A stretch of DNA of 64,000 nucleotides from an uncultured Actinomycetes bacterium (GTDB lineage: Bacteria > Actinomycetota > Thermoleophilia > UBA2241): assembly GCA_963709345.1 (NCBI GenBank), contig CAVPVX010000002.1:32001-96000 (forward strand), in the 5' to 3' direction. Below, in pieces: positions 7,421 through 45,732 of this stretch (position 1 is its first letter; each line of letters opens with the position of its first letter). The notes beneath the pieces were generated by a model. The model was not told the DNA's origin. It searched no databases and saw nothing but the letters and a program-made list of their open reading frames with translations. Position numbers and translations under genes: made by a program.

Positions 7421-8715
7421 GATCCCCCTGTCCCGGCGACGGCCTCCACATCATACCCGAGGGCGTCGGTCACGAGAGCCCGGATCAGACTCCCCCGCCG
7501 GGCGCGCAGGCCGCGCACGAAGGTCCGCCCGTCGACGTCCGGCGCCTGGTACGCGCAGCGGCCGGTGACGACCCCGTCAGAGCGCGACGCCCCGCGCTCG
7601 ACGAGGACCTCGACCTCGCTCCCGACGAGGTCCTCCCAGAACCGACGGGCCTCCAGGTCGATGGTCTCACCGAGCAGCGCGGCGCGCTCGAGCGCTACCG
7701 CCCGTGGCACCAGACCGGCCATCCCCGCGGCCTCGGTGCCCTCCTGCTCGTCGTAGATGAAGACGCCCGCCACCGCGAGGCGCGCGTCGCGCACGAACTC
7801 CAGCAACTCACCGAACTCGCCGTCGGTCTCTCCGGGGAAGCCGACGATGAAGGTGGATCGGACCGCCGCGCCGGGCAGCACCGCGCGCACGCGGTCCAGC
7901 AGACCGAGGTGCGCGGCCCCGTCGCCCCCGCGGCGCATACGCCGCAGCACGGCGCCGGACGCGTGCTGCAGCGGCACGTCGACGTAGGGTACGGCGTGAG
8001 CGGCCAGGGCGTCGAGGAGCCGCGCGTCGATCCCATCCGGCTGCAGGTACAGGAGGCGCAGCCACGCCGGGGCGGGCGCCAGCGCGGCCAGCTCACCGAG
8101 CAGGCGACTCAGGCCGCCCCACCCCGGCTGGTCCCACCGCGAAGTGTCCTGGCCCACAAGCACCAGCTCCCGTGCTCCGGCATCCAGAGCAGCGGCGGCG
8201 CTACGCAGCACGTCGCCGGCGGGGACGATCTCGTAGTCTCCCTTGATCAGCGGGATGGCGCAGAAGGAACAGCGCCGGTCGCACCCGTCCGAGATCTTGA
8301 CGTACGCGGTGACCGGCCGCGGCGCACGGGACGCGGCCGCTGCGAGACCCTTCGCGCCGACCGTCGCCGCAAGCAGAGCCGGCAGCGCCGACGTATCCAG
8401 GCCGCACCACAGGTCCACCTCGGGGAGTTCACGCTCGAGCTCGTCGCGGTAGCGCTCGACCAGGCAGCCTACGGCCGCGAGGCGCGCTCCGCGCGCGTGC
8501 GCGGCCTCCGCCGCGTCGAGGATGGCCGCGATGGACTCTTCCTTGGCGGCGTCGATGAACCCGCACGTATTCACGATGACGACGTCCGCGGAGTCGGAGG
8601 CCGCCGGGCGGTTGCCGGCGGCCCGAAGCGCGCGCTCGAGGGTATCGGAGTCGGCCTCGTTCTTGGGGCAGCCGAGCGTCTGGATGAAGAACGCAGCGCC
8701 CGTGCCGGGCCTCAG
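7417..8715 (-). CDS. rimO: Ribosomal protein S12 methylthiotransferase RimO (probable CTG start)
   Basis: TLGCPKN..DS (upstream of the ORF-track start), NTCGFI, CDRRCSFC, QAPDVDG; start inferred at the CTGA overlap with the yajQ stop. Confidence 0.88.
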   Translation of the reverse strand: MRPGTGAAFFIQTLGCPKNEADSDTLERALRAAGNRPAASDSADVVIVNTCGFIDAAKEESIAAILDAAEAAHARGARLAAVGCLVERYRDELERELPEVDLWCGLDTSALPALLAATVGAKGLAAAASRAPRPVTAYVKISDGCDRRCSFCAIPLIKGDYEIVPAGDVLRSAAAALDAGARELVLVGQDTSRWDQPGWGGLSRLLGELAALAPAPAWLRLLYLQPDGIDARLLDALAAHAVPYVDVPLQHASGAVLRRMRRGGDGAAHLGLLDRVRAVLPGAAVRSTFIVGFPGETDGEFGELLEFVRDARLAVAGVFIYDEQEGTEAAGMAGLVPRAVALERAALLGETIDLEARRFWEDLVGSEVEVLVERGASRSDGVVTGRCAYQAPDVDGRTFVRGLRARRGSLIRALVTDALGYDVEAVAGTGGS

Positions 8716-9203
8716 CGGTAGTTCACGAATTGCAGCGGGATGCCCCAGTCCTCCTCGCGAAGAGCCGCCATGGCGGCCTGGAGCTCATCCTTGCTCGGTG
8801 AGAAGACGCGCAGGGTGTCCCCCTGGATCTGCACCTTCACCTTCTTGAAGCGCTGGCGCACAAGCTTGTTCATGGCCTTCGCCTTCTCGTCGGGGATGCC
8901 CTGGGCGATCTCCGCGCGCTGCCGCACCGTGCCCCCCAGCGCCTCCTCGATCTTGCCGTACTGCAGAGCCTTCACCGGCACCTTGCGGCGCACGAGCTTC
9001 TCCTCGAGCACTTCCACGACCTGCCGCAGCTTGCCCTCGTTGTCCGAGACCAGCACGAGAGCATCGCCCTCGAGCGTCACGGCGCTGACGCTCTTCTTGA
9101 AGTCGTACCGCGTCGCGATCTCCTTGTGCACCATGTTGACGGCGTTGCGGACTTCGCTCAGGTCCGCCCGGGACACCACGTCGAACGACGATTCCTTGGC
9201 CAT
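8712..9203 (-). CDS. yajQ: YajQ family nucleotide/c-di-GMP-binding protein
   Basis: SFDVVS, RYDFK, IQGDTLRV, LQFVNYR. Confidence 0.93.
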   Translation of the reverse strand: MAKESSFDVVSRADLSEVRNAVNMVHKEIATRYDFKKSVSAVTLEGDALVLVSDNEGKLRQVVEVLEEKLVRRKVPVKALQYGKIEEALGGTVRQRAEIAQGIPDEKAKAMNKLVRQRFKKVKVQIQGDTLRVFSPSKDELQAAMAALREEDWGIPLQFVNYR

Positions 9204-9204
9204 C

Positions 9205-9957
9205 TCAGCCCTGCCTCTCAAGCTTACCGTTCTTCACGATCACGTCGACCGGGTCGACCCCGTCGATCGCCTTGGCCTTCGATCCTTCTATGGTCAGCCG
9301 CACGGCCGACGGGTTGCCCATCCGCAGCCAGAGCACGTCACCCTTGAACGACTTGCGGCCGCCCTTCTTCAGCGTCCCCGAGAACAGCACGACGCCGGTC
9401 TCATCGTCGCGGCGCACCTGGACCCAGCAGTCGCCGTCCACGGCGGCGACGGTAGTGACGTCGCGCAGACCGGGCTTCACCGTCGGCGTGGCCTTGGGGC
9501 TCGGCGAAGGGCTCGGGGAGGCCGACGGGCTCGTGATGCCCAGCGCGTCGGGCTTGGTCGGCGGCTCGGCGTCGTCGCCGGATCCCATGCCGAGGACGTA
9601 GATCACGCCCAGCACGAGGAGGCAGATGACGGCGATGAAGACGATGGTGTTGCGGCTGCGGTGGCTGCGGGGCTTGCCGATCACCGAGGAACCGCCGAAG
9701 GGCTCTTCCCGCGCAGCCGCAGGCTCGACGCCGCGTGAGCGGTACTCGTCGATGATCACGTCCGGGTCGAGGGCGAGGTAGGTAGCGTACGTGCGGAGGA
9801 ACCCCTTGACGTAGGTGCCGCCGGGCATGATCTCCCACTCCTCGTGCTCCATGGCCTGCAGGTACTTGACACGGATCTTCGTGTCTTCCTCGACCTGCTG
9901 GAGCGTGAGACTACGCCGTACCCGAGCCTCCCGCAGCGTATTGCCGATCTCGAACAC
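9205..9957 (-). CDS. rodZ: RodZ-like protein (HTH, TM helix, DUF4115)
   Basis: IGNTLREAR..TKIRVKYLQAME..YVKGFLRTYA, one TM helix, C-terminal beta domain. Confidence 0.85.
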   Translation of the reverse strand: MFEIGNTLREARVRRSLTLQQVEEDTKIRVKYLQAMEHEEWEIMPGGTYVKGFLRTYATYLALDPDVIIDEYRSRGVEPAAAREEPFGGSSVIGKPRSHRSRNTIVFIAVICLLVLGVIYVLGMGSGDDAEPPTKPDALGITSPSASPSPSPSPKATPTVKPGLRDVTTVAAVDGDCWVQVRRDDETGVVLFSGTLKKGGRKSFKGDVLWLRMGNPSAVRLTIEGSKAKAIDGVDPVDVIVKNGKLERQG

Positions 9958-10019
9958 GGTGGCTGTGCTTCTCCTCGCTCGTCTGGACGCCTGGCTTCGC
10001 AGGAATCACCCGAACGTAC

Positions 10020-44823: not shown

Positions 44824-45256
44824 GGAGCACCTGCCAGCCGAGCAGTATGGTCCCCACCACGATGGCCACGTCGGCGACGTTGAAGGCGGGCCACGAGTAG
44901 AAAGCGACGAAGTCGACGACGGCGCCGTCGAAACGGAGGCGGTCGATCAGATTGCCGACAGCGCCGCCGAGGATGACGCCAAGCGCGATCCGGTACCTCG
45001 CCGGGCTCAAGGCCAGGGCGACGGCCACGCCTGCGGCTACGGCCGCCACCAGGACGACGACCACCGTGCCCGCCCCGGCCAGCCGGCTGAACGAGATGCC
45101 GGAGTTGTACGTGAGCACGACCCGGAGCCCGCCGGCGACGTCGATCGGCAGGTCGTCGGCCGCTGCGCGGACAAGCCACTTGCTGACCTGGTCCGCGATC
45201 AGGACGCCGGCCGCCAACGCCAGAGCGACGCCGAGCCGGCTGCTACTTCTTGCCAC
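44807..45256 (-). CDS. lspA: Lipoprotein signal peptidase II
   Basis: YNSGISF, GNLIDRL, VVDF, FNVAD. Confidence 0.93.
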
Positions 45257-45407
45257 GCAGCTTCCGCGGGGCGTCCAGTTCCGTGACCTCGAGGTGACCC
45301 ATGGGGCAGCTCGGCTCCTTGACTTTGCCGGACCGGCCGCCGTCGTGGACGACGATGTTCAGTGGATACGTCGCGTTGCAGCGCTTGCAGTAGGCGAGCT
45401 TCGCCAT
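45243..45407 (-). CDS. Small 54-aa putative zinc-ribbon protein (not in the ORF track)
   Basis: AAAGGAG SD + [57 protein letters not shown]; fills the gap and overlaps the lspA start. Confidence 0.8.
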
Positions 45408-45426
45408 CGCACACTCCTTTGCTCGT

Positions 45427-45732
45427 TCAGAGACCGAGTCTATGCTTCGCCTCGGCCAGCGTCACCCCGGTCACCTTGAGCAGCTTGCGCCGCGACCGGG
45501 CGCCGGCGGCCACCGAGACGTCGCTCCGCCGTACCCCGAGCGTCTTGGCGAGCAGGCGCACGAGCTCGTCGTTCGCGCGACCCTCGATCGCCGGTGCGGC
45601 CAGACGGACACGCAGGCGACCGTCGACCACGCCGCTCACCTCGCTGCGGCGCGCTCCGGGCGCGACCCAGACGCTGAGACCCAGCCCGTCGCGCCCGTCC
45701 CTCAGCGGCGTCTGCTCACCACTTGAACTCGT
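45427..45732 (-). CDS. DUF167 (YggU) family protein, probable ACG start
   Basis: LSVWVAPGARRSEV, AAPAIEGRAN, GARSRRK; first beta-strand lies upstream of the first GTG (45639). Confidence 0.82.
   Translation of the reverse strand, partial: TSSSGEQTPLRDGRDGLGLSVWVAPGARRSEVSGVVDGRLRVRLAAPAIEGRANDELVRLLAKTLGVRRSDVSVAAGARSRRKLLKVTGVTLAEAKHRLGL

Follow-up and report, generated by a model that had tools for sequence, protein, structure and literature searches.

Ten genes of an uncultured bacterium of the class Thermoleophilia (Actinomycetota; lineage UBA2241) very probably begin at near-cognate codons (ATC, ATA, ATT, ACG or CTG) in place of ATG, GTG or TTG. Four of them, rimO, gmk, an M16 family peptidase gene and a DUF167 gene, lie on the minus strand of the 64,000-nucleotide stretch of DNA that was analysed (the window; GenBank assembly GCA_963709345.1, contig CAVPVX010000002.1, positions 32,001 to 96,000), which is C2:32001-96000 of a genome (G000) of 3.11 Mb, 69.5% GC and 11 contigs. 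The six others, mreB, rpsF, ispF, hisI, aroE and the gene of an extracytoplasmic function (ECF) sigma factor, came from a screen of the same genome. Confidence that these codons are starts is high because orthologs carry only start-like codons at one column, a Shine-Dalgarno (SD) site is in place, stops close the upstream frame in several genomes, and ATA occurs far above the 2.3% that it contributes to the isoleucine codons of G000. As to why such codons are used, the explanation that is favoured on balance is that they are weak, SD-supported starts held by selection, with some drift in addition.

The start column aligns with canonical starts of orthologs in mreB, rpsF, rimO, hisI, aroE and the M16 gene and, with GTG in two other families, in gmk; such an alignment was not shown for DUF167 and the ECF sigma gene. 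At each of the ten sites an SD site at 4–10 nt scores at least 11 against the anti-SD sequence of the organism's own 16S rRNA (contig C11). A canonical in-frame alternative is absent from rimO, DUF167 and aroE in G000 and from gmk, mreB and rpsF in several relatives, and a downstream GTG lies 5–14 codons into gmk, mreB, hisI and the M16 gene in G000. Conservation across species holds for the set and is sporadic for hisI and aroE. In what follows, f1 denotes the family of G000, which is represented by one genus among the sampled genomes, and genus loci are those of f1.

The four sites of the window

The four sites had been proposed from the letters of the window alone (the sequence-only reading), and the sequence is as described there. 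The same codons recur in independent genomes of the genus, which rules out sequencing or assembly error for these four. No sequencing run listed covered half of the window, and no RNA run was listed for it. Contigs from four runs, compared over 8550-8850, gave no change at 8701-8703 among the rows shown; being contigs of relatives, they are not counted as evidence. Alignment of orthologous starts in Thermoleophilia showed that the gmk, M16 and DUF167 codons are kept in the genus and that the start of rimO is better placed elsewhere.

In rimO the first canonical codon (GTG 8574) does come after the TLGCPKN motif, and there is no ATG, GTG or TTG between the in-frame stop and the motif. The CTG at 8715, which had been preferred as the start, is less well supported than the ACG at 8703. 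In the best 30 of the 53 genomes with a match, the 8703 column reads ACG in 25, ATG in one, CTG in one and another codon in three, as compared with CTG in 18 of the 30 at the 8715 column. Thirteen of these loci have no in-frame CTGA from the yajQ stop, and 10 of the thirteen nevertheless have the ACG. The CTG is the sole near-cognate option in two loci (L039 and L041). The CTGA overlap, taken earlier as evidence for the CTG, shows no excess over chance, since genome-wide there are 111 in-frame CTGA overlaps versus 195 in the other frames (∼97 per frame).

The ACG of the M16 gene (18169) stands behind GGGGAG as reported, with an in-frame TAA 10 codons upstream and the first GTG 14 codons downstream. 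The 24 genus loci have ACG (17), ATA (three), AGC (one) or an ATG or GTG three codons upstream (three), and outside this family ATG (two), ATC (two, one of them directly after a stop), ATT (one) and a GTG two codons upstream (one) are found. The ATC of gmk, eight nucleotides from GGAGG, is likewise present and is common to 19 of the 22 genus loci, the remainder having ATC one codon upstream, GTC or ATG three codons upstream (one each). An in-frame stop lies two codons before the ATC in six of the 22, and five lack any canonical codon from the in-frame stop down to the P-loop. In other families, one genome (G027, f4) has ATC right after a stop, and in two (G038 and G033) a GTG occupies the column or the position beside it. 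The ACG of DUF167, six nucleotides from GGGGTGA within the tail of divIVA, is preceded three codons upstream by an in-frame TGA that is part of the SD site, and both ACG and TGA are found in all of the best 30 of the 49 genomes with a match. In G000 the first GTG comes 31 codons after the ACG. The exact site is nevertheless the least certain of the four because the overlapping DivIVA tail also fixes the ACG, and one genus member (G049) has a GTG two codons upstream.

It is very improbable that the proteins start elsewhere, whether at a downstream GTG, by readthrough or frameshifting, or after editing of the RNA to AUG, or that the codons are assembly errors. Indel errors do occur in several genes of the assembly, gmk and the M16 gene have nearby downstream GTGs in G000, and one gene, selD, mimicked such a site yet proved to contain a selenocysteine TGA. 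However, the same codons recur across many independent genomes, a fixed readthrough or frameshift is ruled out because the upstream stop is in different frames in different relatives, and no single edit converts ATC, ATA, ATT, ACG and CTG all to AUG. Initiation at the first GTG would, moreover, cost RimO its cysteine motif and DUF167 its first ∼15 domain residues.

The four genes and their upstream neighbors are listed in Table 1. The IHF-like gene upstream of gmk is the one that we take to be mIHF.

Table 1. The four genes with near-cognate starts and the genes upstream of them (positions within the window).
Feature	Position	Strand	Remarks
rimO (MiaB/RimO radical SAM methylthiotransferase)	7417..8703	-	428 aa from proposed ACG; TIGR01125 E 5e-99 from residue 7, below equivalog cut-off; TIGR00089 above cut-off
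ACG, best-supported rimO start	8701..8703	-	TGAGG 8714-8710, 6-nt spacer
CTG overlapping yajQ TGA, secondary rimO option	8713..8715	-	
yajQ, upstream of rimO	8712..9221	-	NF003819 E 1e-54
M16 family peptidase	16901..18169	-	422 aa from ACG 18169; GGGGAG 18181-18176, 6-nt spacer; PF00675, PF05193
pnp (PNPase) frame, upstream of M16	18197..20770	-	Pfam RNase_PH, PNPase, KH, S1; TAA in frame with the peptidase
gmk (guanylate kinase)	33859..34419	-	186 aa from ATC 34419; GGAGG 34432-34428, 8-nt spacer; TIGR03263 above cut-off from residue 3
Frame with actinobacterial IHF-like (H2TH) gene, upstream of gmk	34424..35023	-	PF22525 at residues 129-197; true start in 3′ half
DUF167/YggU gene	45427..45732	-	101 aa from ACG 45732; GGGGTGA 45745-45739, 6-nt spacer; PF02594 at residues 17-87, TIGR00251; 17-nt overlap with divIVA
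divIVA, upstream of DUF167	45716..46762	-	PF05103

Two side observations were made on gmk. In L014 and L277, GTC takes the place of the ATC. In a subset of L281-L306 (titled Miltoncostaeaceae/Miltoncostaeales and similar) and in L026 and L027, an apparent GTA or ATA start overlaps the upstream TAG or TAA (GTAG, ATAG, GTAA), and others have a GTGA overlap.

Further sites in the genome

Genes were predicted over the whole genome with a codon model (2808 genes), and the counting of genes whose conserved N-terminus precedes the first ATG, GTG or TTG, which the sequence-only reading had suggested, was carried out on 908 ortholog pairs (∼one third of the genes) shared with G049, of which 1.6 of 1.66 Mb was used. 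The onset of coding conservation was located by a codon-pair likelihood, with matches judged by eye, and this screen replaced two earlier pair screens, in which off-frame matches and SD regions had caused noise. It gave ∼10–15 sites, that is, the 10 supported ones and ∼five possible ones, or 1–1.5% of the pairs. These figures are minimum values, given that the first screens overlooked mreB as well as rpsF and that DUF167 turned up in an early pass only. Many start-less sites unique to G000 were dropped by eye, as they resemble assembly indel errors. When G000 is compared with G049, the frame is shifted in several genes that are otherwise intact, on several contigs and including C2 near window position 52800, which is consistent with such errors and with the earlier caveat on apparent indels in the window.

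The clearest of the new sites are mreB and rpsF. At a single column in 30 Thermoleophilia loci, mreB (C2:147613, ATC in G000) has ATC in 21, ATA in four, ATT in one and ATG in four, the near-cognate codons being found in families f1, f2, f4 and f6 and the ATG in four genomes of f3, f5 and f7. By eye, a SD-like purine stretch lies just 5′ of the codon in the 26 near-cognate loci and not in the four ATG loci. In a quick IQ-TREE protein tree (34 rows, with G004 and the partial G007 left out; a preliminary tree search with no clade test), the four ATG genomes cluster (SH-aLRT 81) among the carriers of ATC, ATA and ATT, in line with a single reversion to ATG from an old weak start. In rpsF (C6:83390) an ATA stands behind AGGAGGTGAT in G000, and behind the same sequence the 18 genus loci have ATA (10) or ATC (eight). 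Other families have ATT, ATC and ATC (f2), CTG and TTG (f4), ACG twice (f6), GTG twice (f3) and ATG (f5), such that ATA, ATC, ATT, ACG, CTG, TTG and GTG all occur at the start column of the orthologs. The in-frame GTG three codons upstream sits within the SD site, and in three genomes (G025, G030 and G027) the start region contains no canonical codon in frame. The rpsF and mreB columns are not ordinary isoleucines because ATA makes up so small a share of the isoleucine codons of G000.

The remaining sites range from fixed to sporadic. The ACG of ispF (C3:49391), in an 8-nt overlap with ispD, is found in 13/13 genus loci, and the codon is canonical in 10/10 loci from other families, with no match in seven of 30 genomes. 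The ECF sigma gene (C4:29812) has ATA (two) or ATC (three) in all five readable loci, two of seven being unanchored. In hisI (C2:259235), 15 genus genomes have ATC (four), ATG (seven) or GTG (four), G049 having ATT, and in aroE (C7:111795) the seven loci have ACG (three), ATG (two), CTG (one) and TTG (one). Possible sites include a macro-domain gene (ACG in G000 alone among the five genomes examined, ATG in four others, one unanchored), a glycosyltransferase-4 gene (ATC vs GTG), a nitronate monooxygenase-like gene (CTG vs ATG) and a few more. Two genes are counted as possible only, the TIGR03960 radical SAM gene (G000 C2:141102, minus strand; L440-L444), where ATA, GTA and ATC (two each) perhaps encode an Ile/Val residue, and trmH after rplT, which has no canonical start and where ATC, ATT, CTG or CTC may be a conserved Ile/Leu.

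Could some 1% of near-cognate starts be the ordinary, unannotated background of GC-rich bacteria, each clade having its own set? Family f18 of another class has ATT or ATA at rpsF in two of the 26 loci examined from other classes (L510 in G094 and L516 in G080), the trait thus not being exclusive to Thermoleophilia, and three Streptosporangiaceae-like gmk loci (L319, L335 and L336) have no canonical codon where close records have GTG. Against this, the gene-matched controls from other classes are mostly canonical, with a canonical codon near the N-terminus of mreB in 26/26 loci and at rpsF in 24/26, and the published mapped counts are lower, two in Escherichia coli (confirmed cases in the accessible text of 10.1101/063800, whose start-codon tables may list more), four in Staphylococcus aureus and four in Deinococcus deserti, versus ∼10 found here with one third of the genes screened. 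Such a background is accordingly regarded as an unlikely explanation.

Several other features were noted in the course of the screen. In the TIGR03960 gene the ATA, GTA or ATC lies one base past the upstream stop, and three genomes also have a mini-frame (ATG-Lys-stop) that overlaps both this stop and the codon. Further candidates, in this one genome, are an ATA or CTG preceded by a SD-like site at C11:55205 (+), C7:708874 (+), C7:645286 (-) and C1:149139 (-) of G000. The selD gene (C1 near 140565, minus strand) was rejected as a false positive, its TGA being a selenocysteine codon. This in-frame TGA at the catalytic position is kept in six genomes (L445-L448 among the loci), and ARAGORN finds a tRNA-Sec on C1, as well as a tRNA-Pyl (CUA) at C11:14991-15063. 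G000 may thus recode both TGA and TAG.

Start selection, the initiation machinery and infC

The sequence-only reading had further suggested that start-codon selection is relaxed throughout this lineage, and this was not borne out. Apart from the small number of genes involved, four unbiased tests for an excess of near-cognate codons were non-significant (p 0.06–0.29). For SD-anchored ACG, ATC, ATA, ATT and CTG, the values are 15/88 vs 196/1792 in G000 (p 0.08) and 12/96 vs 194/2074 in G049 (p 0.29), all 2808 genes of G000 give 11/92 vs 8.9 expected (p 0.29), and with GTC and GTA added, in a later test on 931 pairs, the values are 10/45 vs 145/1141 (p 0.06). GC-driven drift at the third codon position of the upstream gene is applicable only to DUF167, ispF and, within rimO, the alternative start CTG; it is excluded for gmk, M16, mreB, rpsF, hisI, aroE and the ECF sigma gene because these starts lie in non-coding DNA and several are ATA or ATT, which are not changes toward GC. 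Coupled re-initiation may help gmk (+4 nt from the upstream stop), rimO (+8), DUF167 (−17) and ispF (−8), but not mreB and the ECF sigma gene, where the upstream stop is 172 and 141 nt away, respectively; the distance for aroE is 85 nt.

The initiation machinery, including initiation factors 3 and 1 (IF3, IF1) and the initiator tRNA, whose inspection had been proposed, looks ordinary. The 3′ end of the 16S rRNA is GATCACCTCCTTT, and its 790 loop, 1338-1339 region and h44/h45 motifs (in what we assume to be the standard numbering) read as normal. The single-copy initiator tRNA has its three GC pairs, fmt and ksgA give full-length matches (fmt being under the family cut-off, as in four of the five genomes searched), and a pattern search found the motifs of IF1, IF2, RsmB, RsmD and the S9 tail. 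The IF3 core aligns with solved IF3 chains, among which 8jsg_A, judging by length and sequence, was taken to be the E. coli protein, and the YGK-to-YSK change of the G000 protein is also seen in PDB chain 5lmn_X. The positions matching R25, Q33 and R66, whose role is described in the accessible part of PMC9723500, are kept. Hence no lesion was found in G000 in the IF3 contact residues, the three GC pairs of the initiator tRNA, the anti-SD sequence, fmt or ksgA.

The gene of IF3 itself, infC, does differ in this genus. It has ATG in 16/16 loci, with no SD site, right after a GC hairpin and U-run (L081:1456-2004 (+); G000 C11 near 465650), and it encodes a conserved Arg/Pro-rich N-terminal extension. 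The ATT, ATA or ATC at infC by which IF3 autoregulation is recognized is not found in the genus, nor was any Rfam family found in the leader upstream of the gene. Elsewhere in Thermoleophilia, infC has GTG or TTG in f2, f3, f5 and f7, ATA in f4 (3/3) and, by eye, an apparent GTC in f6 (3/3), while the codon behind the SD site in 26 loci of other classes was read by eye as ATA (12), ATC (10), GTC (three) or CTG (one). Loss of infC autoregulation was considered as the cause of the near-cognate starts and rejected, as it does not track their use across families. Family f4 has an ATA infC together with near-cognate mreB, gmk, M16 and rpsF, and in f3, f5 and f7 infC and the other genes tested all start at canonical codons. 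As a separate observation, GTC follows GGAGGTG-type sites at infC in f6 (L065, L070 and L073) and f21 (L173, L183 and L186), with an in-frame TAG two codons upstream in L070, which suggests that GTC is a usable weak start.

A milder relaxation of start discrimination, confined to part of Thermoleophilia, has a real but minor chance of being correct. Near-cognate codons behind a SD site would then be nearly as good as GTG and would accumulate by drift, and the loss of the weak infC start would reflect weakened scrutiny by IF3. In this direction point the flips of hisI and aroE among ATG, GTG, TTG, CTG, ATC and ACG in one genus, the use of such codons by S6 and MreB, which are normally abundant proteins, and the ATG of infC in all genus loci as opposed to the ATA, ATC, GTC or CTG of other classes. 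The possibility stays alive because ATC barely worked in Mycobacterium smegmatis (see below). It is opposed by the four non-significant tests and the lack of a CTGA excess, by the presence of the IF3 residues, tRNA-fMet GC pairs, anti-SD sequence, fmt and ksgA, and by the mismatch between infC type and near-cognate use in f4 as compared with f3, f5 and f7.

Proposed selection for weak starts and its meaning

The favoured explanation is that the ATC, ATA, ATT, ACG or CTG lies a few bases 3′ of a SD site, at the column that in relatives holds ATG, GTG or TTG, and would be read by the ordinary formylmethionyl initiator tRNA at a low, IF3-sensitive efficiency that is likely held low by selection. 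The strong SD site would compensate for the weak codon, and the output would be a fraction of that from AUG. Selection for a weak start is proposed because mreB, rpsF, the M16 gene and the ECF sigma gene swap among near-cognate codons without settling on ATG. Two gene classes can be envisaged. The deeply kept sites (mreB, rpsF, gmk, ispF, ECF sigma, M16 and rimO), where near-cognate codons replace each other and a return to ATG is rare, suggest step-down or growth-dependent control, while the sporadic ones (hisI, aroE and the macro-domain gene), where canonical and near-cognate codons interchange, look like tolerated drift in low-demand genes. A step-down in expression is plausible behind highly expressed upstream genes, and several sites sit directly behind such genes, namely the IHF-like gene, pnp, yajQ and divIVA.

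Published measurements, in the portions of the papers that were accessible, give some idea of how such starts might behave. In S. aureus, AUA and AUU starts behind extended SD sites give ∼10% of the output of AUG, and ccpN up to 30% in rich medium (PMC13009471). In E. coli reporters, ACG and AUC yield an N-terminal methionine (10.1101/063800), and in E. coli extracts mRNAs with non-AUG starts are hit by nutrient limitation and ppGpp, although to the authors attenuation is not the whole story (PMC5499595).

Several points count against selection for weak starts, or against particular sites. In a M. smegmatis selection ATC was nearly inactive, with 0.2% of reads compared to 9.8% for ATT and 20.5% for ATG (PMC4633059, accessible part), and this fits poorly with the abundance of MreB and S6, unless initiation is more permissive here or the SD site compensates. 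The avoidance of ATG amounts to few independent changes among related genomes and consists of counts only. The median SD score of the ten sites is 15 vs 11.5–12, a comparison that is partly circular as several sites were found via their SD site. The Pfam domain of the M16 peptidase starts at residue 14, adjoining the downstream GTG, gmk has GTG GTG five codons into the gene in G000, and the f18 rpsF loci place the trait outside the class as well.

By their sequence, the sites would be classed with the SD-led near-cognate starts of the infC, pcnB and ccpN type, and three known systems are close to them, as described in the accessible parts of the reports. In S. aureus and Bacillus subtilis, ccpN (AUA), cvfC1 (AUU), citZ (AUA) and infC (AUA) are alike in having a near-cognate codon, a strong SD site, conservation and a proposed role in attenuation and growth dependence (PMC13009471). 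There, however, four sites were established by Ribo-Ret and reporters, whereas the ∼ten sites here come from sequence, concern other genes (mreB, rpsF, gmk, ispF) and include ACG and ATC, and infC has AUA in that set but ATG in this genus. The AUU starts of E. coli infC and pcnB belong to the same IF3-sensitive codon class and serve genes of low or feedback-controlled output (10.1101/063800; PMC5499595), but only two genes are involved, whereas here infC is without the weak start and rpsF has the same architecture (GGAGGTG followed by ATA or ATC). In Deinococcus, dnaA (ATC), rpsL (CTG), Deide_03051 (CTG) and infC (ATA) are likewise genes of a GC-rich organism, essential ones and a ribosomal protein gene included, with clade-wide starts that had been mis-annotated (PMC2830850). 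The genes and the phylum are different, dnaA and rpsL were proven by peptides, and ACG was not among the codons screened in that study. A literature search, which covered few subscription journals and no supplements, found nothing on an ATC start of mreB, a non-canonical start of rpsF or ACG and ATC starts in Actinobacteria. No report on start codons in Thermoleophilia was found either, the accessible text of the one relevant paper mentioning the class only in an anti-SD table.

Bacterial starts other than NTG have been treated as a handful of exceptions, and here ∼ten are supported in a third of the genes of one genome, some of them across four families and in core genes. Gene finders would truncate RimO, with loss of its cysteine motif, as well as Gmk, MreB and S6, or would miss DUF167, across many genomes of the class. 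The rpsF orthologs form a natural codon series that, together with an infC lacking the weak start, makes it possible to ask directly if such codons are attenuators under selection or the product of tolerated drift. More speculatively, and with only a slim likelihood, mreB (for cell elongation), rpsF, gmk, ispF, rimO and the ECF sigma gene may form a start-codon regulon in much of Thermoleophilia, tied to initiation fidelity by their weak, SD-backed codons, under an IF3 that has lost its own weak start and acquired an Arg/Pro-rich arm. If so, a form of sensing that is used elsewhere only for the autoregulation of IF3 would set the expression of growth-related genes.

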